A model generated the notes under the pieces. That model was not told where the DNA came from, ran no database searches, and saw nothing but the letters and a program-made list of their open reading frames with translations. Positions 1 through 14,765 of a stretch of DNA of 64,000 nt are shown here, piece after piece. A program made the translations under genes and the position numbers. This stretch comes from Myxococcota bacterium (GTDB lineage: Bacteria; Myxococcota_A; UBA9160; SMWR01). How positions within the stretch are numbered: the first letter of the stretch is position 1; each line of letters starts with the position of its first letter. Where the stretch lies: contig DATKND010000054.1 of NCBI GenBank assembly GCA_035541475.1, positions 4,069 through 68,068 of the forward strand, read 5' to 3'.

Positions 1-2025
1 CTGAGCTACTTCTTCGCCCCGCCGCGCTTTTCGTTTATGGTCGGGAATCGACAGGACGTCGTGGTGTTGGGCGCCTTCCTGATCGCCGCGCTCGTGACCA
101 CCCGGCTCGTAAACCGCTCGACACGAGCCGCACGGCTCTCGGAGGAGCGCGCTCGACTCCTCGATCTCACACACGACGCGGTCATCATCCGCGACATGCA
201 AAGCCGAATCGTCTACTGGAATCGCGGCGCCGAGCGGCTGTACGGATGGTCGGCCACCGAGACGCTCGGACGGTTCATGCACGAGTTCAGGATGGGGCCC
301 GAGTCGGCCGCCGACCGGGAGGCCAAGGCGCAGTTGCTGCAAACGGGCTCGTTGCAACGCGAGCTATGGCACACGACGCGCGACGGGAAGCGCCTGATGG
401 TCGAGGTCAGCGGCGCGCTCGAGCGCGACGAATCGGGGCGTCCCGTCGCGGTGCTCCTGACGTTGAACGACATCACCGAGCGCAAGCGCGCAGAAGATGC
501 ACTACGGAAGAGCGAGGAGCGCTGGCGAGCCGTCTTCGAGCACAACCCGACCATGTACTTCATGCTCGATCCCGCCGGGACGGTGATCTCCGTCAACCCG
601 TTCGGCGCCGAGCAGCTCGGCTACACCGTCGAGGAGCTGGTCGGTCGTTCCGTGCTGGACGTGTTCATCGAGAGCCATCGAGAGGCGGCCCGCCGGCACG
701 TCGCCGACTGCCTCGCGCATCCCGGTCAGGCCCTGAGCTGGGAGCTGCGCAAGCTGCGCCGCGATGGGACGATGCTCTGGGTGCGCGAGACGGCGAGAGC
801 GATGCGAACGGCGGACGACGAGGTCGTCGTCCTCGTCGTGTGCGAGGACATCACGCAGCGCAAGCGCGCCGAAGACGAGCTGCGCGCGAGCGAGACCCGC
901 TTCCGCACTTTGGTGGATCACGCGAGCGACGCGTTCTTCATGCACGACGAGCGAGGCACCCTGATCGACGTGAACCGCCAGGCCTGTGAGGGCCTCGGCT
1001 ACACCCGCGACGAGCTCGTCGGGATGTCCCGGGCCGATTTCATCTCGCGCCTCACAACCACCGACGACGAGGACGCGAAGGGGATCCGGGAGCGTTACGC
1101 GACGAGCGACATCGCCACGCTCGAAAGTCGCCACCGCCGAAAGGACGGGACCCTGTTCCCCGTCGAAGCTCGGATGCGCCAATTCCGCTCCGAGGACGGC
1201 CATCAGTTCGGCATCGCGCTCGTCCGGGACATTACGGATCGCAAGCAGGCGGAGCAGTCACTGCGGGAGGCGCAGGCGGCGTTGGCGCACGTGACGCGCG
1301 TGACCACGCTCGGCGAAGTGACGGCCTCCTTCGCGCACGAGCTGAACCAGCCGCTGGCCGCCATCGCCAACAACGCGAATGCGTGTCATGCGTTGCTCGC
1401 GGAGGGGATTTGGGAGGCGGACGAGCTGCGAGAAGCCCTGGCCGACATCGTGAGCGACGCCGAGCGGGCGAGCGCCATCATCGAGCGCGTGCGCGCCCTG
1501 GCGAAGCGCTCGGCGCCCGAGCGCACGGAGCTGCGGCTCGGCGAGGTCGTGCGGGACGTCCTGGCCCTGGCCGCGGCAGAGTCCGCGGCGCGCCAAGTGA
1601 CGATTCGTACGGACTTGGCCGCGGACCTCCCCGTCGTGATGGGCGACCGCGTGCAGCTCCAGCAGGTGCTGTTGAATCTGGTCGTGAACGCCATGGATGC
1701 GATGGCCGGCGTCGACGAGTCGGAGCGGCGGCTCGAGATTCGCGGGCAGCTCGACATGCAGGACGGACGCCCGGCGGTGACGATTCGCGTCGAGGACTGC
1801 GGTATTGGCCTGAAGGCGGAAGAGGCGGATCGGCTCTTCGAGCCGTTCTACACCACCAAGCCGCACGGCATGGGGCTCGGCCTCGCGATCAGCCGCTCGA
1901 TCCTCGAGGCGCACGGCGGCCGTCTGTGGGCCGAATCGAATCCCGGCCGCGGGGCCGTCTTCTCCTTCCTTCTTCCGGCTCGAGGCCGCTCGCCGCTGGA
2001 CGCCGGTCCTGGACCCGATCGCTGA
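1..2025 (+). CDS. PAS-domain sensor histidine kinase HK1 (5' end outside window)
   Basis: Frame 1 is open from nt 1 (LSYFFAPPRFSF, the end of a DUF4118/KdpD-type membrane module) into ORF 37..2025. Three PAS-like repeats: LLDLTHDAVIIRD..YWNRGAERLYGW, WRAVFEHNPTMYFMLDPAGTV, FRTLVDHASDAFFMHDERGTLIDVN. H-box FAHELNQPL. HATPase boxes LLNLVVNAMDAM, GIGL, TTKPHGMGLGLAISRSI. Confidence 0.9.
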   Translation: MSYFFAPPRFSFMVGNRQDVVVLGAFLIAALVTTRLVNRSTRAARLSEERARLLDLTHDAVIIRDMQSRIVYWNRGAERLYGWSATETLGRFMHEFRMGPESAADREAKAQLLQTGSLQRELWHTTRDGKRLMVEVSGALERDESGRPVAVLLTLNDITERKRAEDALRKSEERWRAVFEHNPTMYFMLDPAGTVISVNPFGAEQLGYTVEELVGRSVLDVFIESHREAARRHVADCLAHPGQALSWELRKLRRDGTMLWVRETARAMRTADDEVVVLVVCEDITQRKRAEDELRASETRFRTLVDHASDAFFMHDERGTLIDVNRQACEGLGYTRDELVGMSRADFISRLTTTDDEDAKGIRERYATSDIATLESRHRRKDGTLFPVEARMRQFRSEDGHQFGIALVRDITDRKQAEQSLREAQAALAHVTRVTTLGEVTASFAHELNQPLAAIANNANACHALLAEGIWEADELREALADIVSDAERASAIIERVRALAKRSAPERTELRLGEVVRDVLALAAAESAARQVTIRTDLAADLPVVMGDRVQLQQVLLNLVVNAMDAMAGVDESERRLEIRGQLDMQDGRPAVTIRVEDCGIGLKAEEADRLFEPFYTTKPHGMGLGLAISRSILEAHGGRLWAESNPGRGAVFSFLLPARGRSPLDAGPGPDR

Positions 2026-2031
2026 CTCGCA

Positions 2032-2051
2032 ACCTGTCCTTTAGGACAGGT
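2032..2051. promoter_or_regulatory. Palindrome ACCTGTCC-ttta-GGACAGGT (candidate activator site; could also be a hairpin)
   Basis: Read directly. It starts 7 nt after the HK1 stop. The identical 8-bp arms recur at 10547..10566. Confidence 0.5.
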
Positions 2052-2057
2052 GCTCGT

Positions 2058-2075
2058 GCTGTCCCAAAGGACAGC
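2058..2075. promoter_or_regulatory. Second palindrome GCTGTCC-caaa-GGACAGC
   Basis: Read directly. It shares the core TGTCC-N4-GGACA with 2032..2051; centres are 25 bp apart. Confidence 0.45.
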
Positions 2076-2093
2076 TGGGCACGCACGCCTGCA
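2076..2093 (+). promoter_or_regulatory. Sigma-54-like -24/-12 element with one extra spacer base
   Basis: tGGGCACgcacgcCTGCA. The GGCAC and CTGCA blocks match the good promoter at 10441..10458, but the spacer is 6 nt rather than 5 nt. It lies 54 nt upstream of the receiver gene ATG at 2147. Confidence 0.3.
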
Positions 2094-2146
2094 CCAGTAG
2101 GATGTTCCCCATGAGCCAAGCCGGACCGAAGAACGAAGGACGCGAG

Positions 2147-2554
2147 ATGGCAGAGCCGCACGGAGCGCTGGTAGCCGTCGTCGACGACGACACTTCCGTG
2201 CGGCTGTCGACCTGCCGGCTGATTCGCTCGTTCGGTCATCGCTGCGAGTCGTTCGGCTCGGGCGAGGAGTTCTTCGCCTCCGGCTTCGCCGAGCAGATCG
2301 CCTGCCTGGTGCTCGACGTGCGCATGCCGGACATGGACGGGCTGGAAGTCCAGCGCCGCCTCTTCGAGCGAGGCGCGCGCATTCCCATCCTCTTCGTCAC
2401 CGGCAGGGCCAGCGAGCAGGAAGAGGCGCGGGCGCGTGCGGCCGGAGCCGCCGCGTTCCTGCGCAAGCCGGTCAGTCAGGTGAGTCTGCGCGAGGCCCTC
2501 GATCACGCGTTGTCCGCATCCGGACGCGTTCAAGGAGACCGCGATGGCGAGTGA
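2147..2554 (+). CDS. Stand-alone CheY-like receiver domain protein
   Basis: ORF 2102..2554. The preferred ATG at 2147 has AAGGA 6 nt upstream. Receiver motifs: VAVVDDD, LVLDVRMPDMDG, FVTG, LRKP. No output domain. Confidence 0.85.
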   Translation: MAEPHGALVAVVDDDTSVRLSTCRLIRSFGHRCESFGSGEEFFASGFAEQIACLVLDVRMPDMDGLEVQRRLFERGARIPILFVTGRASEQEEARARAAGAAAFLRKPVSQVSLREALDHALSASGRVQGDRDGE

Positions 2555-3776
2555 ACTCTACGACCTGCAGGACCCGCGGGACCTCTACGGTTTCACGCGA
2601 GAGCCCTGGCGGCTGACCGCCGTCCTGGGCGGCGGCGCCGCGAGCCGGCGCGAGGACGCAGACGGCGCCCTCGATCCGCCGCCCGCCATCGCGAGGAGCC
2701 CCGTGCTCGAAGGGGTGGTCGGCCGCTCGCCCAGTCTGCGCGCAGCGCTGAACCGCGCGAGGAAGGTCGCGCCGACGGATTCGACGGTGCTCGTGACGGG
2801 TGAGACGGGAACCGGCAAGGAGCTGCTGGCACGCGCCCTCCACAAGTGGTCGCGGCGAGCCAACGGACCGTTCGTCAGCATCAATTGCGCGGCGACTCCG
2901 CCCACACTGATCGCGTCGGAGCTCTTCGGGCACGAGCGCGGCGCGTTCACGGGGGCACTCCAGCGGAGGCGGGGCGTCTTCGAGCTGGCGGCGGGTGGGA
3001 CGTTGTTCCTCGACGAGGTGGGCGAGCTGCCGGCAGAGACGCAGGTGGCGCTGCTGCGCGTGCTGCAGGAGCGCGAGTTCCAGCGAGTCGGAGGCACGGC
3101 GTCGCTGCGTGCCGACGTGCGCGTGATCGCGGCCACGCATCGCGATCTCGAGCAGGCCGTTCTGGAGGGGAACTTCCGCAGCGACCTCTACTACCGGCTC
3201 CACGTCTTCCCGCTCGAGATGCCGCCGCTGCGCGAGCGCTCCGGCGACATCCGCCTGCTCGTGGAGCACTTCGTCGAGAGTTACGCTCTGAGCGTTGGCA
3301 AGACCATCCGCGGCATCGAGCCGCGCACGCTCGAGCAGCTCGAGACGCATACGTGGCCCGGCAACGTGCGCGAGCTCCAGAACGTCGTGGAGCGCTCGCT
3401 GATCGTGTGCGACTCGGAGCTCTTCACGCTCGACGAGAGCTGGCTGCCGGCCGAAGCTCCGTCGTTCGCGCCGTCGCCTGCGAACGGGACAGCGGCTGCG
3501 CAGGCGGCGCCGACGACGATGCAGCGCACGCCCCTGCGCGCGACGCTCGACGAGATCCAGCGTGCCGCGATCCTCGAGGCGCTGCAGGCGTGCAACTGGG
3601 TCATCGGCGGGCCGCAGGGCGCCGCCGCGCTGCTGGGAATCAAGCGGACCACGCTCCAGGCCCGCATGCGGAAGCTCGGCATGTCACCGCTGCGAGCCGC
3701 CGCCAGCGCCGAAGCGCAGTCCACATCGATTCCTGACTGCGCCGGTCTCGCCCCGTTGCACGCGCATCCCCGGTGA
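2544..3776 (+). CDS. Sigma-54-dependent transcriptional activator (AAA+ plus Fis-type HTH, no sensory N-domain)
   Basis: AAGGAG lies 6 nt upstream of the ATG, and the start overlaps the receiver gene end by 11 nt. Walker A GETGTGKE, ELFGHERGAFTGA (GAFTGA loop), Walker B LFLDEVGEL, RVIAATHRDL. C-terminal HTH AAALLGIKRTTLQARMRKLG. Only about 60 aa precede the AAA+ core. Confidence 0.9.
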   Translation: MASELYDLQDPRDLYGFTREPWRLTAVLGGGAASRREDADGALDPPPAIARSPVLEGVVGRSPSLRAALNRARKVAPTDSTVLVTGETGTGKELLARALHKWSRRANGPFVSINCAATPPTLIASELFGHERGAFTGALQRRRGVFELAAGGTLFLDEVGELPAETQVALLRVLQEREFQRVGGTASLRADVRVIAATHRDLEQAVLEGNFRSDLYYRLHVFPLEMPPLRERSGDIRLLVEHFVESYALSVGKTIRGIEPRTLEQLETHTWPGNVRELQNVVERSLIVCDSELFTLDESWLPAEAPSFAPSPANGTAAAQAAPTTMQRTPLRATLDEIQRAAILEALQACNWVIGGPQGAAALLGIKRTTLQARMRKLGMSPLRAAASAEAQSTSIPDCAGLAPLHAHPR

Positions 3777-5057: not shown

Positions 5058-5995
5058 TCAAGGAGCGGGAGCCGGTACGGGACCCGCGACCTGCCATCCG
5101 CCACCGAGCGCCTTGTAGAGCGCGATCAGCTCGAGCGAGACGTCGCGCTCGCTCTGTGCAAGAGAGTCCTGCGCGGTGAAGAGCGTCTCCTCGGCAGTGA
5201 GCACGTTCAAGAAGTCGGTCAGGCCCTGCGTGTAGCTGCCGCGCGAGCTCGGCGGCGCGCTCGTCCGCGCGGACGGCTTCCTCGAGACGGATGCGCGTCA
5301 CCTGCTGGCGCTCGAATGCGACGAGCGCGTCTTCCACTTCGCGGAATGCCCCTAGGACCGCGGCTTCATACAGGGAGCGATCCGCGCGAACATCGCTCTC
5401 CAGAATGCTACGCAACAGGAGCTGCTCGCGGCGTGACGTACTAGAAGCCGACGTCACCGAACAAGCTGATGAGCGTCGCATCGCGATCCGCCTCGGTGGC
5501 CTCGAGACTCGCGTCGGCCGACTGGACCTCGCGGCGGATGCCGCCGAAGACATCGAGCTCCCAGCTGGCGTCGAAGCCCGCCGTGAAGACGTCCTCCCAG
5601 CGGTTGCCTGGGGTGCTGTCGTTCGAGCCGCGTTTGCTCTGCCGCTGCACGGCCACCGAGCCCGACGCATCGAGCGTCGGGTACAAGCCCGCCTCTGAGA
5701 TGCGTCGAGACGCGCGCGCCGCCAGCACGCGCGCCTCCGCCTGCCGCACATCGAGGTTTGCCCGCATCGCGCGCTCGATCAGCGAGGCGAGCTGCGTGTC
5801 GCCGAAGGTCGTCCACCAGGTTGCCGCGACCGGCTGCGGCATGGCCTCGGAGGTCTGGTCCGCGTCGGATCGCGTCTCGAGCTCGCCCCACGACGGCGAC
5901 TCCGGTTCCCTGGGCCGGAGATAGTCCGGCCCGACCATGCACCCCGACGCGCAGAGCAGCGCGAGAGCCGCGAACGCGGGTGCGCACCTCTTCAC
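5058..5995 (-). pseudogene. NodT-family outer-membrane efflux lipoprotein, internally deleted and frameshifted
   Basis: The N-terminal part is ORF 5441..6100 from GTG 5995 (lipobox LLCASGC, MVGPDYLRP, WWTTFGDTQL), and ends in TAG at 5441. The middle part lies in a second frame (AVLGAFREVEDALVAFERQQ). The C-terminus lies in a third frame (GLTDFLNVLTAEETLFTAQDSLAQSERDVSLELIALYKALGGGW, stop at 5058). About 312 codons remain, versus roughly 460-500 expected for this family. Confidence 0.8.
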
Positions 5996-6187
5996 GGCCG
6001 CCTCGCTGCGCGGAAGTCGACCGCACACGCGGTGCGCGTCACGCTGGCTCCGCCGCGCGTTCACGCGCGCTCCTCCAATGCCGACGCGGAGCGCGGACAT
6101 CTCGACGCCGGCTGGATCGAGCGGCTACCGAAGGGCGCCGCGCGAGCCGCCCCCATCCGCGTCGCCCTTTGCGTTGACGTGGTAGTT

Positions 6188-6632: not shown

Positions 6633-9629
6633 CTATTCGAGGACGAGGCTCTCCGCTGGACTGCGATCGTGCCCGGGGGCGGCGTTCTCCAGCGCGCCAG
6701 CTGGCGCCGGAAGGCAGAAGAAGAAGATTGCGCCGCGCCCGGAGTGGGATTCGGCCCCCAGCGTTCCGCCGTGCGCCTCGAGGATCGAGCGGCTGATCGC
6801 CAGGCCGAGGCCCATGCCGTGCGGCTTGGTGGTGTAGAAGGCCTCGAAGAGCCGCTGTGCATCCTCGGCACGCACGCCGACCCCGTGGTCGCGCACGCTG
6901 ATCCGCACGGCGGCGCGCCCCTCCAGCTCGGCGGGGCTCCCTCGGATCTCGACGGTGCGTTCCGGGTCGTCGATGTCGCTCATCGCGTCCATCGCGTTCA
7001 CGACCAGGTTCAAGAGCACCTGCTGAAGCTGCACGCGATCGGCGAGCACGAGCGACAGATGGTCCGGCACGTCGGTCCGGATCGTGATGCTTCGGGTATC
7101 CGCTTCCGCGGCCACTAGCGCCACGACCTCGCGCGCCACCTCCGAGAGCCGCACCGGCATGCGTTCCGGCTTCGACCGCTTTGCCAGCGCGCGCACGCGC
7201 TCGATGATGGCACTCGCCCGCTCGGCGTCGGCCACGATGTCGGAAAGCGCTCGTCGCCCCTCGTCCGCGCCGGGCTTCTCGCGGGGTAGCAGAGCCAGAC
7301 ACGCGTTCGCGTTGTTCGAGATCGCACCCAGCGGTTGATTCAGCTCGTGAGCCAACGAAGCGGTCACTTCCCCCACCGTCGCCACCCGCGTCACATGCGT
7401 AAGAGCCGCCTGTGTCTGCCGCAACGCCTCCTCGGCCTGCTTGCGCTCGGTGATGTCCATCATCGTCCCAACGGTCTCGATAGGTCGGCCGACCGCATCG
7501 AGGGCCGCATTGCTCACGATCTCGACGTGCCGGAGCGTCCCGTCCGGAAGAACGATCCGGAGCTCGCGAGCGTAGTTCGCTTCCTTGCGCTCGATGGCGT
7601 CGATGATCACGGCTCGATCCTCCGGGTGGATCCGCTCGAGCACCGCCTCGGTCGACGGAATTCCCTCGTCAGGATCGAATCCGTACATCCGGAACATCTC
7701 CGGAGACCAGTTCTTCAGCACCTCGGTCTCGAGGTCGAACACCCAGCTGCCCGTGCGACTGACGCGCTGCGCCTCCGACAGCCAGAACTCGTTTCGCCGC
7801 AGGGCTTCCTCCGCCTCGCGCCGGTCGTGGATGTCGACGGCGATGCCCATCCAGCGAACGATGCGCTCCTCGGTGTCGCGGACCGGCCGGGCCCGAATCA
7901 GGTGCCAGCGGTACTGGCCGTCTGCAGCCCGGCGCAGCGGCGCCTCGGCGTTCCATTCGCCACCCGACGCGACGGTCTGCTGCCACGACTCCGTGAGCCG
8001 GTCGCGGTGTTCCGGAGCGACGGCCGCGAACTCGGGTTCGCTCTCGTCCAGCGTGAGCCCCGTGTAGTCGCACCACCACTGGTTGACGAAGACGAGCTTT
8101 CCGTCGGCGTCCGCCATCCAGACCATCTGCGGCGACACTTCGATCAGCGCGCGATAGCGCTCCTCACTCTCCCGCAGCGCCATCTCGGCGCGCTTGCGCT
8201 CGGTGATGTCGCGCGCGAGCGTGAGACCGAGCGGACGCCCGTCGGGCGACGTGAATCCACGCGTGCGGACCTCGACTGGGACGGTCGTTCCGTCCTTGCG
8301 ACGGTTGCGGCTCTCGAACGTGACGATCGGTTCGCCCGCCTCGAAACGCTTGCCGATCGCCACGGGATCGAGATCCGGATCGATGTCGAATGCCGACATC
8401 CCGATCAGCTCGTCGCGCGTGTAGCCGAGGCTGTCGCAGGCCTGGCGGTTCACATCGATCAAGACGCCGTCCTCGCCGTGGAGGTAGATCCCGTCGGTCG
8501 CGTGGTCCACCAGCGTGCGGAAGCGGGTCTCGCTCGCCCGCAGCTCGTCCTCGGCGCGCTTGCGCGCGGTGATGTCCTCGCACGCGACGAGGACGATCGG
8601 ACCGCCATCCGTCCCCTGCATCGCCCGGGCCGTCTCGCGCACCCAGAGCGGGGTGCCGTCCTTGCGGGCCTTGCGCAGCTCCCAGCTCACGGCCTCCCCG
8701 GGATGTGCGAGGCAGGCGGCGACGTGGTCCTTCGCGGCCTGCCCGTCGTCTTCGTGGAAGACGCCGACAACTGAACGGCCGATCAGTTCCTCGACGGTGT
8801 AGCCGAGCTGCTCCGCGCCGTAGCGGTTCACCGAGAGCACGGTGCCCGCCGGATCGAGCATGAAGTACATGGTCGGGTTGTGCTCGAAGACGGCCCGCCA
8901 CTGCTCCTCGCTCCTCCGTAGCGCTTCCTCCGCTCGCTTGCGCTGCGTGATGTCGTTGGCCACCACGAGATGCGCGACGGGATTCCCCTCAGCGTCTCGC
9001 TGGAGCACGCTGCGAGCGGCGACCACGATCCGCTCCCCCGCGCGCGTCACATTGAAGAGCTCGCCCTGCCAGGAGCCGGTTCGGAGCAGCTGCCCTGCGA
9101 CGTTCGCGATTGGCTCGTGAGACGTCGTCTGGAGGAGCTCGTGCGCCATGCGGCCGATCGCTTCGTCGGCGCTCCAGCCGTACAGCTCCTCGGCGCCGCG
9201 ATTCCAATAGATGAGGCGATCGTCCATGCTGGTGATGCAGACCGCGTCGTGCGTCAGGTCGAGGAGCCCGGCGCGCTCGGCTACGCCCTGGTCCGAGCGC
9301 CGCGCGCGATCCACGACCCGGGTGATCACGAACGCGGTGAGGAGAAACGCGACCAGCTCGATCGTGTCGATCGGCGTCCCGCTCGTCCAACCGTTGGAAG
9401 GATGGAAGAAGGAGTTCAGACACGCGACCGCGAGGAGCGAGAGCGCTGCGAGCACAGCAAACGACACGGTCGACGACAGCAGCAGGATCGCGATCAGATA
9501 CAAGAACGCGGTGGGCGTCGAGTCGAATCGCAACGCGAAACACACCACGGTGACGAGTGCCAGAGCGGCGAGGCCCAGCGCGAGCTGCTTCGCCACCTGC
9601 CAGACCCGGGCGGCGGTATCTACCTTCAT
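6633..9629 (-). CDS. Membrane-anchored multi-PAS sensor histidine kinase HK2 (paralogue of HK1)
   Basis: ORF 6633..9779. The preferred ATG at 9629 gives MKVDTAARVW followed by hydrophobic DUF4118-like helices. Five PAS-like repeats. H-box LAHELNQPL. HATPase motifs (NLVVNAMDAM, TTKPHGMGLGLAISRSI). Long blocks are identical to HK1. Confidence 0.9.
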   Translation of the reverse strand: MKVDTAARVWQVAKQLALGLAALALVTVVCFALRFDSTPTAFLYLIAILLLSSTVSFAVLAALSLLAVACLNSFFHPSNGWTSGTPIDTIELVAFLLTAFVITRVVDRARRSDQGVAERAGLLDLTHDAVCITSMDDRLIYWNRGAEELYGWSADEAIGRMAHELLQTTSHEPIANVAGQLLRTGSWQGELFNVTRAGERIVVAARSVLQRDAEGNPVAHLVVANDITQRKRAEEALRRSEEQWRAVFEHNPTMYFMLDPAGTVLSVNRYGAEQLGYTVEELIGRSVVGVFHEDDGQAAKDHVAACLAHPGEAVSWELRKARKDGTPLWVRETARAMQGTDGGPIVLVACEDITARKRAEDELRASETRFRTLVDHATDGIYLHGEDGVLIDVNRQACDSLGYTRDELIGMSAFDIDPDLDPVAIGKRFEAGEPIVTFESRNRRKDGTTVPVEVRTRGFTSPDGRPLGLTLARDITERKRAEMALRESEERYRALIEVSPQMVWMADADGKLVFVNQWWCDYTGLTLDESEPEFAAVAPEHRDRLTESWQQTVASGGEWNAEAPLRRAADGQYRWHLIRARPVRDTEERIVRWMGIAVDIHDRREAEEALRRNEFWLSEAQRVSRTGSWVFDLETEVLKNWSPEMFRMYGFDPDEGIPSTEAVLERIHPEDRAVIIDAIERKEANYARELRIVLPDGTLRHVEIVSNAALDAVGRPIETVGTMMDITERKQAEEALRQTQAALTHVTRVATVGEVTASLAHELNQPLGAISNNANACLALLPREKPGADEGRRALSDIVADAERASAIIERVRALAKRSKPERMPVRLSEVAREVVALVAAEADTRSITIRTDVPDHLSLVLADRVQLQQVLLNLVVNAMDAMSDIDDPERTVEIRGSPAELEGRAAVRISVRDHGVGVRAEDAQRLFEAFYTTKPHGMGLGLAISRSILEAHGGTLGAESHSGRGAIFFFCLPAPAGALENAAPGHDRSPAESLVLE

Positions 9630-9660
9630 CGGACGTCCGGACGAATCGATTCTCGATGTG

Positions 9661-10415
9661 TCAAACGCGGGCCATGTTAACACCCGAAAGCTCGAGGACG
9701 CGGTCTGCCACGCGCGGGGTGTCGAAGCGAGCGCGCCGCGACGGCGCTCGGAGACGACAAGCTGCGACGTCGTCGGCACCGAGCAGCTTGCCGATCAGCT
9801 CGAGCGCGTCGCGATGGAAGAGGATCTGCATGTGTCCGATGCCGCGGAGCCGCAGCGCGCGCTGCCGCACCGCCGTCGCGATGCACGAGGAGCGTTCCGG
9901 CACAACGGCGTCACCGTCGCCCGTGATCGCGACGAGCTCCGATCCGCGTGGCACCGGACGCGCCGCGAGCCGGGCGAGGAAACGAGAGCCCGGGCGCAGC
10001 TGTCGCATGCACGGCGACAGCCCGAGGGTGGCGAGCGCGGCATAGCGCGCGAGCGGCACCCGCGGTGCGGTGTCCCCAACGTGATCACACGTCGGACTCG
10101 GGATCCGCGATCGATGTGCTTCAGGAGCACCGTCGCGACCAGGCCGCCGAGCGAGTGCCCGACGACGTCGACCGCGCCGAACCCCGCCGCTGCGATGGCG
10201 GCGTCGACGCACGTCGCAACGTTCAGGACGTCGCCCCAGCCGAAGCCGAGCGCCGGTCGCAGGACGGGACACTCGAGGCGGACGCGGATCTGCCGCGCGA
10301 GGAACGCGAGCATGCGCGGCGTGCTCGCGAAGCCGTGGAGCAGCACGACTGGCCGCGGCGGCATCTGCGGAAGGGCAGCGGTTCGAAGGATCGAGTCGAG
10401 CGCGACCGCGGCCAT
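9661..10415 (-). pseudogene. Alpha/beta hydrolase (lipase-like) with one apparent frameshift
   Basis: ATG 10415 is preceded by AAGGAGG. The sequence reads PVVLLHGF, nucleophile elbow VVGHSLGG and ITLGTPHRG in ORF 9795..10415. It then continues one frame over as VPLARYAA...VAITGDGDAVVPERSS...GIGHMQILFH to the stop at 9661. The break is near 10062. Confidence 0.7.
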
Positions 10416-10440
10416 CTCGATTTCCTCCTTCGGCGGCGCG

Positions 10441-10458
10441 TTGCAGCTTGCGTGCCAT
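10441..10458 (-). promoter_or_regulatory. Sigma-54 (-24/-12) promoter
   Basis: The minus strand reads aTGGCACgcaagCTGCAa. This matches TGGCAC-N5-TTGCA with correct spacing and one mismatch. It lies 26 nt upstream of ATG 10415, with the AAGGAGG RBS in between. Confidence 0.65.
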
Positions 10459-10546
10459 GCCCGGGAGCGGGCCCCATCGAGCGACGGCGCCCGCGCGCCG
10501 TTTCTCTGGCTCGATTGCCATTCGGTCGGCAGCGCACAAGGGCCGC

Positions 10547-10566
10547 ACCTGTCCTTCGGGACAGGT
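10547..10566. promoter_or_regulatory. Palindrome ACCTGTCC-ttcg-GGACAGGT (candidate upstream activator site)
   Basis: The arms are identical to 2032..2051. It sits about 100 bp upstream of the sigma-54 promoter at 10441..10458, and about 140 nt downstream of the FixJ-like gene stop. Confidence 0.5.
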
Positions 10567-10706
10567 TCACGTTCTGTCGAGTCCAGATGGGCTGAAGCGC
10601 TCGGATCGGTAGGAGGTGCGTATGCAGAAGCTCGGCTTTGCGGCGTAGCGGGCCGCAGGCATCGCCACCTCCTGAACGGAGCGGCGCGCGACGTGCATCG
10701 GCCTCT

Positions 10707-11360
10707 CTAGCCGGTCTCTGCGGGCGACGGGGCTCCCGGCCGCGGCAGCGGGATGCGGAGCTGTCCCGCCATCCTCACGAGTTCTGCGATCGACTCGGCC
10801 TCCATCTTCTTCATCAGGTGCGCGCGGTGGAACTTGATCGTGCGCTCGCTCGTGGACAGCTCGGCTGCAATCTGCTTGTTGAGGAGGCCTGCGACGGCGA
10901 ACGCCATGACCTCCCGCTCTCGCGGCGTGAGGCTCTCGTAGCGCTCACGCAGCGCTTCGTCGGCGAGGCGCGCGGCGATCCGCGAGCGTTCCCGCTCGAT
11001 CGCAGCACGGATCGCCGGCAGCAGCTCCTGCGAGCGGACCGGCTTCGTGAGGAACTCCGCCGCGCCCGCCTTCATCGCACGCACCGACATCGGGATGTCC
11101 CCGTGCCCGGTCACGAAGATGATCGGGATCTCGACCCCGGAGCGCGCGAGCTCGCGCTGGAGGTCGAGACCGCTCTGCCCGGGCAGCCGCACATCGAGGA
11201 CGAGACAGGCGGGGCCGTCGATGGGCGCGCTGTCGAGAAATGCCTGCGCGGACTCGAAGGTCCGCACCGCGAAACCCATCGAGCGCACCAGGCGCTCGGT
11301 CGACTTGCGGACCGATGCGTCGTCGTCGACGACGAAGACCGTGGGGGCCCTCTCGCTCAC
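10707..11360 (-). CDS. FixJ/LuxR-family two-component response regulator
   Basis: GTG start. Receiver motifs (VFVVDDD, LVLDVRLPGQSG, FVTGHGD, KAGAAEFLTKP) plus a LuxR-type HTH (LTPREREVMAFAVAGLLNKQIAAELSTSERTIKFHRAHLMKKM). Confidence 0.9.
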   Translation of the reverse strand: MSERAPTVFVVDDDASVRKSTERLVRSMGFAVRTFESAQAFLDSAPIDGPACLVLDVRLPGQSGLDLQRELARSGVEIPIIFVTGHGDIPMSVRAMKAGAAEFLTKPVRSQELLPAIRAAIERERSRIAARLADEALRERYESLTPREREVMAFAVAGLLNKQIAAELSTSERTIKFHRAHLMKKMEAESIAELVRMAGQLRIPLPRPGAPSPAETG

Positions 11361-11489
11361 GATGGTCCGAGGCTACCACCGCCGCCGTGCCAGCGTCCTC
11401 TGAGGCGCGCCGCGTTCGCAGTCAGATCCATTCTGTGCCGCTTGCCCTCTGACTCGCAGCCGGAGCTCGTGATGATCGTCATGATGCCG

Positions 11490-11880
11490 TCAACGCGAGC
11501 TCTTACGTGCGAAGCGCACAAGGGCGTTGCGCGCGGCGCGAATCTCGACCGCCTTCCGCTGGGCGAGTTCGCGAAGCTCCTCGCCCAGTACCTGGCCGGG
11601 GTCGTACTGCTTCATGCGCGCCCGGAACGCCCGCTCGATCTCTCGGTGTGAAGCGCGAGGAGGCACACCCAGCACCTCTCGCGTCCCACACCTTCGTCGG
11701 CTCCGCCGGACACTCGGGATCCGCAGTCGCTCTCGACGACGCCACAGTGTGTCGCTCGGCGCCGCGCAGACGCTCGCGCTCCGCCCGATCGGGGCGCTCT
11801 CTCTTCGACACCCCCGAGAAGAGAAACGCGTTGCCCGCGAGTCCCAGGGTCAGCCCCCCGATTCCGAGACCAATCGCCAA
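11490..11880 (-). pseudogene. Possible membrane-anchored J-domain-like protein with a frame change
   Basis: The ORF 11503..11880 frame gives an N-terminal TM helix (MAIGLGIGGLTLGLAGNAFLF). One frame over, ORF 11490..11675 gives VLGVPPRASHREIERAFRARMKQYDPG, which looks like J-domain helices I-II but has DPG instead of HPD. Confidence 0.3.
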
Positions 11881-13549: not shown

Positions 13550-14602
13550 CTACCCCACCCGCTCCATCGCGGTCCTGAGAGAATCCAGGCCGAGGTTGAA
13601 GTAGCTCCGCTGGATTACCTCAAGGCTCGACCAACCGCCCAGACGGCGAATCACCTCAGCGTTTGCACCGGTCTCAGCGAGGGTCGTCGCCCAGGTGCGT
13701 CGGCAGACGTGGAGCCCGAGAGGCTCCATCCCAGCCCGCAGGTACGCCTTGCGAACGCGATCTTCGACGGTCCGAAGCTGCCCACCGTCGTTCGCGCGGA
13801 TGAAGAACCAGTCCTCGGGCTTCATCTGGCCGCGCTGGTGCTCAATGTAGTGTTGCAGGTAGCGAAGAAGCCGAGCGCCGATCGGTACTACACGCCGTTG
13901 CTTCGACTTCGGAGACCACCGTCTCCCGTCTTCGAGCACCTTCGCCCGCACATGGATCAAGCCGCGGAGATCCACGTCTCGGGCTTGCAGGGTGAGGGCC
14001 TCCCCGCGTCGAAGGCCCGCGTAGAGGCAGAGCGCGACGATCATCCGTAGCTGCGGATCGCAGGCCGCGAGGAGCTGGCCTTGCTCTTTCCGCGTGAGGA
14101 TGCGCGGGTCGCAGTCGTCTCGGACCGAGGTGAGCCCACTGAGTTCGAGCGGAGGGAGTCGTTCGATCAGTCCGCTTCGAAGGGCCCAATGGAGGGCAGC
14201 CTTGATCACCCTCAGATCCCGGTTGTAGCTGACGACCTGGGCGCCGCCGGATGCCCGGAACTCGCAATGCCGACGGATCGCTTCCATATCCAGCAGGACT
14301 AGGGGACAGGAAGCAAGGCCGGTCTTCTGAACCGCCTTGAGCACCTCCCGGTCGTTCCGGAGCGTGTCTTCTTTGACTGCCCCTCTCTTGCTGGTGGCAA
14401 TCCCAGCACACCGGGTCCGGTGCCAGCGCTGGAGTAGATCGCGAAGGACGAACGAGTGACCTGGCTTCGACTGCCCGGACTCCTCCCTCGCTAGCCACTG
14501 CTCAGCCTCGGCGTAGGTCGGGAAGACCTTCCGGAGACGGCCTCGGGCGGCCTTGGAATCAGCGATCCAAGTCCCGTTCGGACGCTTACGAATCGAGCCC
14601 AT
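13550..14602 (-). CDS. Tyrosine recombinase / phage-type integrase
   Basis: ORF 13550..14668. The preferred start gives MGSIRKRPNGTW. Catalytic-domain motifs: GLRRGEALTLQARDVDL, GLHVCRRTWAT (H-x-x-R), LGGWSSLEVIQRSY (catalytic Tyr). Confidence 0.85.
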   Translation of the reverse strand: MGSIRKRPNGTWIADSKAARGRLRKVFPTYAEAEQWLAREESGQSKPGHSFVLRDLLQRWHRTRCAGIATSKRGAVKEDTLRNDREVLKAVQKTGLASCPLVLLDMEAIRRHCEFRASGGAQVVSYNRDLRVIKAALHWALRSGLIERLPPLELSGLTSVRDDCDPRILTRKEQGQLLAACDPQLRMIVALCLYAGLRRGEALTLQARDVDLRGLIHVRAKVLEDGRRWSPKSKQRRVVPIGARLLRYLQHYIEHQRGQMKPEDWFFIRANDGGQLRTVEDRVRKAYLRAGMEPLGLHVCRRTWATTLAETGANAEVIRRLGGWSSLEVIQRSYFNLGLDSLRTAMERVG

Positions 14603-14765
14603 TTGCGTGCCTCTGGTGGTTCGCACCATGGCAACGATCGACTGTTCGATAGGCTCGCTTAAGTCCATACCGGTAAAGGCTTTTCAGCAACCGGCAACCA
14701 ATCGCGGACCTTTCGAGTCAGGCCCGTTCAACCGGACTCCGGCACCTCTCCGAAGGGCGCGGATT

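Follow-up and report, generated by a model that had tools for sequence, protein, structure and literature searches.

The nifA gene encodes a sigma-54 activator, and in the StyS/StyR and TodS/TodT systems multi-PAS kinases are combined with operators that are palindromes and lie 5' of the promoter under control. At fixK, FixJ gives protection over two neighbouring regions, -69/-44 and -57/-31, and nifA is also a FixJ target, which is activated (PMC4999443); the lux box of Vibrio fischeri reads ACCTGTAGGATCGTACAGGT (PMC4444344). Here we analysed a stretch of 64,000 nucleotides (nt), hereafter the window, from an uncultured Myxococcota bacterium (contig DATKND010000054.1), in which a sigma-54 promoter precedes the operon of an alpha/beta-hydrolase and a PAS histidine kinase (HK2), and a palindrome of 20 base pairs (bp) lies further upstream, at 10547..10566. 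We lean, if only slightly, towards a reading in which these two elements have different owners: the RpoN promoter would serve the hydrolase-HK2 operon, and the palindrome would be a relic operator, the likely binder of which is a FixJ-like response regulator.

Two signalling loci of the window are concerned. Locus 1 is the region of a second histidine kinase (HK1), a receiver-only protein and a sigma-54 activator, and locus 2 is the hydrolase-HK2 region together with the FixJ-like gene. For comparison, Myxococcota loci encoding hydrolase homologues were fetched from metagenome-assembled genomes (MAGs) and metagenomes (L numbers below), and actinobacterial homologues were included for contrast.

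The probable sigma-54 promoter of the hydrolase-HK2 operon

10441..10458, minus strand: sigma-54 (-24/-12) promoter aTGGCACgcaagCTGCAa, with GG at 10456-10455, GC at 10444-10443 and a predicted transcription start site (TSS) at about 10432
10424..10430, minus strand: Shine-Dalgarno sequence AAGGAGG, 8 nt 5' of the hydrolase start codon ATG 10415 (10415-10413)

The sequence-only reading of this DNA had placed a sigma-54 motif with one mismatch and correct GG/GC spacing on the minus strand at 10458->10441, with AAGGAGG between it and ATG 10415. Inspection of the sequence bears this out: TGGCACgcaagCTGCA agrees with TGGCAC-N5-TTGCA at 10 of 11 positions, the GG-N10-GC spacing is exact (10 nt), and the ribosome-binding sequence stands in the gap between motif and ATG, which measures 25 nt. 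By itself such a match is not significant. It is the only one in the window with at most one mismatch, where 0.26 are expected, and at least one such match turned up in 24 of 100 shuffled sequences.

The case is carried by conservation. Over 25 loci from Myxococcota MAGs and metagenomes have an element of the form TGGCA(C/T)-N5-nTGCA, with GG-N10-GC, 25-150 nt 5' of the start of the orthologous hydrolase. Among the close relatives it reads TGGCATccggtATGCA (L002, L089), TGGCATccggcATGCA (L005), TGGCATccgtcGTGCA (L090), TGGCATgggacGTGCA (L091), TGGCATcggacGTGCA (L173) and TGGCATcgggcGTGCA (L006), at 25-47 nt from the start codon; in more distant loci of Myxococcota the sequences include TGGCACatgcaTTGCA, TGGCACacggcTTGCA and TGGCACgccgcTTGCT, and at two of these loci TGGCAC-N5-TTGCA is perfect. 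Upstream windows of 380 nt were scanned for matches at 9 or more of the 11 consensus positions, GG and GC being obligatory. The background of such matches was 28 per 368 kb-strand, that is about 0.03 per upstream window; about 0.5 loci would thus be expected to have a match, and 8 of the 17 unique genome loci did. None was present upstream of any of the actinobacterial hydrolase homologues, which belong to a phylum without sigma-54. Moreover, the intergenic sequence that flanks the element is poorly kept among the loci, unlike the GG-N10-GC element.

The activator gene family accompanies the hydrolase gene as well: the two are adjacent in tandem in L002/L003 and L089, and they diverge in L173, in L005 and on the P0004 contig, where the closest relatives of both window proteins are encoded. 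Because the element is conserved upstream of hydrolase orthologues and the activator family is syntenic with them, we accept 10458->10441 with high confidence as a genuine sigma-54 promoter, as had been claimed from the sequence alone. That the -24/-12 match is fortuitous, and that hydrolase and HK2 are read through from the FixJ-like gene or transcribed from an unrecognised sigma-70 promoter, would agree with the frequency of matches in shuffled 64-kb sequences and with the lack of any terminator between the FixJ-like gene and the hydrolase in a scan of 9700-11500; it is nonetheless very improbable, given that GG-N10-GC is kept at the same position over many divergent loci whose flanks are not kept, and that the hydrolase gene is linked to the activator gene in close relatives.

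The operon itself consists of the following genes.

9661..10415, minus strand: alpha/beta-hydrolase gene in its intact reading (Pfam Abhydrolase_6 and PGAP1); the annotated open reading frame (ORF), 9795..10415, ends out of frame
6633..9629, minus strand: HK2, a histidine kinase with DUF4118 and multiple PAS domains (Pfam; gene call of L001), second gene of the operon

The annotated hydrolase ORF is frameshifted in comparison with its homologues of about 250 amino acids, all of which are intact, and tblastn places the frame switch at about 10057. One G is missing at 10057-10062 both in the window and in the independent Logan assembly L001 when compared with L172, and the frame shifts past residue ~120; L172 has another 1-nt insertion further downstream. 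Decay of the gene in this lineage is one explanation; the other is that both changes, that of the window and L001 and that of L172, are assembly errors. The start of HK2 was corrected to ATG 9629 (the ORF had been listed as 6633..9779), which is 31 nt past the intact hydrolase stop. HK1 and HK2 share 61-70% identity.

Two further observations were made around sigma-54 elements. A GC-rich imperfect inverted repeat, GCGGGCGCCGTCG-ct-CGATGGGGCCCGC, at 10467-10494 abuts the -24 element of the window, its centre being at about -48. The distant hydrolase loci L104, L116, L117, L121, L122, L126-L128 and L130 have promoters of the type TGGCACgc.gcTTGCT and a block TTGCAACTTCTACAAG about 60 nt 5' of the -24 element, which is probably the enhancer of another activator; with this different upstream block, they are uninformative as evidence on the palindrome.

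The palindrome and the two-site operator module

10547..10566: operator site A of locus 2, ACCTGTCC-ttcg-GGACAGGT, a lux-box-like 20-bp dyad
2032..2076, plus strand: intact operator of locus 1, with site A at 2032-2051 and site B at 2057-2076, centres 25 bp apart
2098..2103, plus strand: -10-like hexamer TAGGAT, 7 nt 5' of ATG 2111, without a Shine-Dalgarno sequence
2111..2554, plus strand: receiver-only (REC) protein (NCBIfam), with a conserved start; the last 11 nt of the gene are shared with the start of the activator gene
37..2025, plus strand: HK1, a FixL-like multi-PAS histidine kinase (Pfam); 6 nt separate its stop codon from site A of locus 1, which follows

Both the palindrome at 10547..10566 and its counterpart at the paralogous activator locus, as announced by the sequence-only reading, could be read directly, the latter with the same arms at 2032-2051. 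Site B of locus 1, TGCTGTCC-caaa-GGACAGCT, is a related copy. Palindromes of this kind with up to 3 mismatches occur 3 times in the window against 0.14 expected, a count reached in 0 of 100 shuffles, and a position weight matrix (PWM) made from 16 sites gives the window copies scores of 25.7, 25.7 and 23.7, with 11.1 for the next best site in the 64 kb.

An alignment (A4) of the regions upstream of receiver-only genes comprises 8 modules: locus 1 of the window, L169, L170 (twice), L002, L005, L173 and L090; a decayed copy is present on the plus strand of locus 2. The order is always site A, a gap of about 6 nt (range 4-7), site B, a stretch of about 25 nt, the hexamer TAnnnT, 6-7 nt and ATG. 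The consensus of site A is (A/C)CCTGTCC-N4-GGACAG(G)(T) and that of site B is GCTG(T/C)(C/A)C-CAA(A/G)-(G/A)G(A/C)CAGCTG. Columns 3-5 (CTG) and 16-17 of the dyad are invariant in all 16 sites and column 18 is kept in 15 of them, the centre and inner arms being variable. The geometry is equally strict: the centres of sites A and B lie at -69.5 and -44.5 relative to ATG 2111 at locus 1, and at the same distances from the receiver-only ATG in all relatives aligned. The hexamer (TAGGAT or TACTGT) is found 6-7 nt 5' of ATG in 8 of 8 modules, without Shine-Dalgarno. We therefore predict for the receiver and activator genes a leaderless sigma-70-type promoter, with an activator-type operator abutting its -35 region. 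The palindrome fits a real sequence-specific site for a dimeric protein.

What lies 5' of the module varies: HK1 in the window, the FixJ-like gene in L002, L005, L170 and L173, and an unrelated DUF3237 gene in L169, and in L090 the module stands between divergent genes with no upstream gene. In L002, L005 and L173 site A and the FixJ-like stop codon overlap, and in L170 site A is about 60 nt past that stop. The module is not the end of an upstream gene, since DUF3237 precedes it in L169 and the genes diverge in L090.

Several observations concern starts of transcription at these loci. A sigma-54 promoter upstream of the receiver and activator genes was considered and rejected, as the window sequence CTGGGCACGCACGCCTGCA is GG-N11-GC and L002, L005, L169 and L170 are without a well-placed GC. 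Like the receiver-only gene, the FixJ-like gene probably has a TAnnnT hexamer (11370-11375) and no Shine-Dalgarno sequence (hexamers 6-10 nt before the starts). The arrangement at 2098-2113 and 11370-11375 of the window and at 4640-4676 of L169 points to mRNAs with no leader, or almost none, in this lineage of Myxococcota. A scan of locus 2 (9700-11500) for E. coli-type promoters found none.

At locus 2 the module is broken.

10573..10589, plus strand: decayed site B' (TCTGTC---GAGTCCAGATG), with a 3-nt deletion and several substitutions compared with GCTGTCCcaaaGGACAGCTG (alignment A4)
10598..10648, plus strand: remnant of a divergent promoter with the first codons of a gene, a stump left of the receiver-only gene; 17 nt are the same as in L169

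In the plus-strand reading, this module points away from the hydrolase. Within CGCTCGGATCGGTAGGAg (10598-10615) the -10 hexamer TAGGAT is mutated to TAGGAG, and the frame of the stump runs from ATG 10622 through seven further codons (8 in all) before it is closed by TAG at 10646-10648; the FixJ-like gene beyond the stump lies in convergent orientation. The opposite orientation, the broken site B, the mutated -10 and the 8-codon stump make the module of locus 2, in our reading of the sequence, a relic of a divergent promoter: the region is then a former divergent intergenic region such as those of L090 and the P0004 contig, which has lost its receiver and activator genes, the intact copy being that of locus 1.

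Site A of locus 2 is identical over its 20-mer to site A of L169, and comparison of L169 3054-3112 with window 10547-10615 shows this identical 20-mer and an identical 17-mer amid otherwise diverged sequence. It should be added that L169 and L172, the latter representing the strain of the window, derive from one sample. One possibility is that L169 is a third paralogous locus of this genome and that gene conversion has occurred; alternatively, the shared blocks may be under constraint.

As for the surroundings, a fragment of an outer-membrane efflux protein (OEP) gene, 5441-6100 on the minus strand, sits between both signalling loci, and a short remnant of an OEP C-terminus is found at 1767-1889 of L170 between two duplicated operator pairs; these remnants hint at repeated rearrangement around the signalling modules. 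A gene of the phage integrase family (13550-14668, minus strand) lies about 2 kb past the FixJ-like gene. No tRNA genes were detected anywhere in the 64-kb window, and an Rfam scan of the region returned no match.

Candidate binding proteins

10707..11360, minus strand: FixJ/StyR-like response regulator with REC and GerE-type helix-turn-helix (HTH) domains (Pfam), candidate binder of sites A and B
2544..3776, plus strand: sigma-54 activator without REC domain, with an AAA+ domain bearing GAFTGA and a Fis-type HTH (Pfam Sigma54_activat, 7.6e-72, and HTH_8)

The structures closest to the regulator in the PDB are those of StyR (1yio, 4.8e-56) and FixJ (5xso, 1e-46), and the NCBIfam FixJ model gives it 217 bits, under the cut-off of 255. 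Its gene adjoins the operator module in L002, L005, L169, L170, L173 and the P0004 contig. We favour this protein as the binder of sites A and B because lux boxes are recognised through GerE-type HTH domains, no other protein with such a domain is encoded nearby, and its gene accompanies the module in every locus; supported also by analogy with FixJ acting on nifA, the assignment stands at about an even chance, or slightly better. Both the 20-bp CTG-N10-CAG form of the dyad and its position at -69.5/-44.5 before a -10-like hexamer would suit a regulator of the FixJ/LuxR type (GerE HTH) no less than an enhancer-binding protein.

The other candidate, 2544..3776, is 100% identical to a protein from a Myxococcota MAG, and its nearest NCBIfam model is NifA (357 bits versus a cut-off of 529). 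It was said to be the sole activator of the window, and indeed no other protein with Sigma54_activat and HTH_8 exists among the 38 ORFs scanned. Its gene overlaps that of the receiver-only protein at 2544-2554 (11 nt; 1 nt in L169), the start of the latter having been corrected to the conserved ATG 2111 rather than 2102. Such 'split NtrC' pairs of a receiver-only protein and a REC-less activator recur in L002, L005, L169, L170, L173 and the P0004 contig. The receiver-only protein shares 49% identity with the REC domain of the FixJ-like regulator, and the NCBIfam FixL model gives HK1 303 bits, which is under its cut-off. The recognition helix IKRTTLQARMxKLG is essentially identical in the activators of the compared loci and also in an AraC-linked paralogue in L171. 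The activator probably opens the 10458 promoter.

Several points weigh against reading the palindrome as the relic operator of a FixJ-like regulator and the RpoN promoter as the driver of the hydrolase-HK2 operon. Site A of locus 2 is perfectly intact though site B, 6 nt off, has decayed, and it could still be under selection, e.g. as an enhancer. It stands 88 nt from the -24 element; measured from the TSS predicted at ~10432, its midpoint is at about -124.5, in the classical enhancer range, and it lies on roughly the same face of the helix as the promoter. No other candidate for an upstream activator site was identified in the window. The lux-box likeness concerns LuxR proteins of the acyl-homoserine lactone (AHL) type and not response regulators, and the rhizobial FixJ sites, TAAGTAATTTCCCTTA, are unrelated to the CTG-N10-CAG dyad found here. 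None of the 38 window ORFs scanned is rpoN, and the hydrolase frameshift may be an assembly error or may mark a real pseudogene.

The strongest competitor is the proposal made by the sequence-only reading, namely that the palindrome is the upstream activator sequence bound by 2544..3776, here with the addition that this activator would also autoregulate its own operon via 2032-2076. Apart from the intact site and its position (a distance of 80-150 bp being usual for enhancers), this proposal is favoured by the presence of the same site at the activator's own operon, by the absence of any other strong dyad further upstream in the 250-nt intergenic region, and by the fact that TGT...ACA-type dyads are common as sites of enhancer-binding proteins; as these act at a distance, they could act from the operator in the relatives. 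The comparison of loci speaks against it. Upstream of six related hydrolase sigma-54 promoters (L002, L005, L006, L089, L091, L173) no A/B-like site is present within 350 nt (best PWM score at most 3.0), and, because these site-free relatives share the activator recognition helix, the dyad is not a conserved part of this sigma-54 promoter. Such a site is near the hydrolase promoter only in the window and in L090, where the adjacent receiver and activator promoter, a former one in the window, explains both. Furthermore, the AraC-linked paralogue of L171 with the same helix has no such site near its sigma-54 promoter, the sites of the relatives are fixed at -69.5/-44.5 before a sigma-70-type -10 and not before -24/-12, and locus 2 retains a single intact site, where enhancers usually have two or more. 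With the palindrome assigned to the operator of the receiver and activator promoter, its use by the activator as proposed appears unlikely, though it is the most serious of the alternatives.

A variant of that proposal is more doubtful still: the REC-less activator, controlled in trans by its co-translated receiver-only partner, would itself bind the lux-box-like dyads, which would serve for autoregulation of its leaderless operon and as a movable enhancer of the sigma-54 hydrolase-kinase promoter, with the FixJ-like regulator competing or cooperating at these sites. If true, this would amount to a feedback circuit of four proteins and two sigma factors that uncultured Myxococcota of soils have kept.

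We consider it improbable that a different dimeric regulator, with its gene outside the window (e.g. a LuxR solo or a CRP/FNR-type protein), occupies the operator and that both local regulators are bystanders. The 5-4-5 core TGTCC-N4-GGACA does have the format of an FNR box, CTG-N10-CAG has that of a lux box, and our view covers 64 kb of the genome; against this, the FixJ-like gene and the receiver and activator genes are present wherever the module is, and no further regulators were found among the 38 window ORFs scanned.

The possibility, raised along with the original proposal, that the palindrome is merely an RNA hairpin at the 3' end of the FixJ-like or HK1 transcript, acting as intrinsic terminator or attenuator, is contradicted and can be set aside almost entirely: its GC-rich 8-bp stem and tetraloop, its place 6 nt past the HK1 stop and over the FixJ-like stop codon in L002, L005 and L173, and the good folding of the tandem locus 1 hairpins (z = -3.7) stand against the lack of a U tract after any copy (terminator scan of 9700-11500: 0), an unremarkable hairpin context at locus 2 (z = -0.9), conservation of sequence rather than pairing (inner pairs break uncompensated, and the covariation score was reached by 87 of 500 shuffles), and sites that follow an unrelated gene (L169) or lie between divergent genes (L090).

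Other sequences upstream of sigma-54 promoters were also considered. In the clade of L002, L005, L089, L090 and L173 the blocks AGCGGTCGGCGGCGACTGCCCAGA, GTCGACACGGC..TCGA and TCGTTAGGCGCGAC are conserved 5' of the hydrolase promoter (L002 4837-4860, L005 1486-1510, L090 160-185, L173 1460-1485, and also L089) and are candidates for the true activator sites or for IHF sites. They were not found in the window or in L091, and as the window's activator site they were rejected, being absent from it and having a weak dyad that is not kept in L089 and L173. A palindrome with 1 mismatch about 120 nt 5' of the sigma-54 promoter of L011 overlaps a divergent start codon and is attributed to chance, about 5 being expected by composition in 1.33 Mb. 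The 8-mer CGGTCGGC, common to six upstream regions, occurs 20 times in the window and its enrichment is marginal; a NifA-type TGT-N10-ACA site is not present upstream of the sigma-54 promoter. In L171 an AraC/GAF (MimR_N-like) regulator and the REC-less activator paralogue are encoded beside a strong sigma-54 promoter, TGGCACgtgagTTGCT (6691-6706, minus strand), and an 8-bp palindrome, TGTCGACA (6770-6790), lies about 60 nt 5' of its -24 element and about 85 nt from the predicted TSS.

Proposed wiring and comparison with known systems

Taking motifs, conservation, geometry and synteny together, we infer the following direction of regulation. The RpoN-dependent promoter at 10458->10441 would drive the frameshifted hydrolase gene and the PAS kinase HK2, and the NifA-like REC-less activator 2544..3776 would open it, presumably under the control of the co-translated receiver-only protein 2111..2554 and the FixL-like kinase. 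In the ancestral layout the two operons would have been divergent, receiver and activator genes being read in one direction from the operator, and hydrolase and kinase genes in the other from the sigma-54 promoter. The resulting cascade would run from a kinase to the FixJ-like regulator, from there to the receiver and activator operon, and finally to the sigma-54-dependent hydrolase-kinase operon, comparable to the step from FixLJ to nifA. A sigma-54 promoter with a two-component cascade is conventional biology and ordinary regulatory wiring.

An uncharacterised signalling module, met repeatedly in uncultured Myxococcota of soils, is thereby given a testable wiring; its parts are a PAS kinase of the FixL type, a regulator resembling FixJ and StyR, a protein with a receiver domain only, a sigma-54 activator without REC domain, and the hydrolase-kinase operon driven by sigma-54. 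The scheme also carries a caution, since a regulatory site can be misassigned by position alone: what looks like an enhancer dyad 100 bp 5' of a -24/-12 promoter would here be the surviving half of a defunct neighbouring promoter.

Among the described systems, FixL/FixJ with nifA and fixK in rhizobia offers a PAS kinase, a regulator with REC and GerE domains and, as proposed here, the switching-on of a NifA-like activator gene; the two adjacent sites, roughly at -80 to -35 of a predicted sigma-70-type promoter, would be a further likeness. In contrast, the activator of the window has neither GAF nor REC domain and is co-translated with a separate receiver-only protein, the end target is a hydrolase-kinase operon and not nif/fix genes, and the host is an uncultured Myxococcota; the NCBIfam scores of the window proteins for FixJ, FixL and NifA are all under the respective cut-offs.

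The NtrC enhancer at glnAp2 is matched in the -24/-12 promoter, in the AAA+ GAFTGA activator with Fis-type HTH and in a dyad about 100-140 bp upstream. Here, unlike there, the dyad is not co-conserved with the promoter, is present as one intact copy, and derives from a decayed divergent module of the sigma-70 type.

The likeness to lux boxes lies in the sites themselves. Site A has the outer hexamers ACCTGT...ACAGGT of the V. fischeri box ACCTGTAGGATCGTACAGGT (PMC4444344) and shares 14 of 16 arm bases with the Vibrio fluvialis box AACTGTTCGATCGGACAGGT (PMC9166416); it is likewise a 20-bp dyad with CTG at 3-5 and CAG at 16-18, centred beside the predicted -35 region. It differs in that no AHL-type LuxR or LuxI is found here, that the candidate binder is a phosphorylation-controlled response regulator, and that two sites stand in tandem.

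Lastly, in the StyS/StyR and TodS/TodT systems, StyR (1yio) is the best structural relative of the FixJ-like regulator; the operator sequence and the regulated genes are different, and the operon that would be regulated here encodes a sigma-54 activator.

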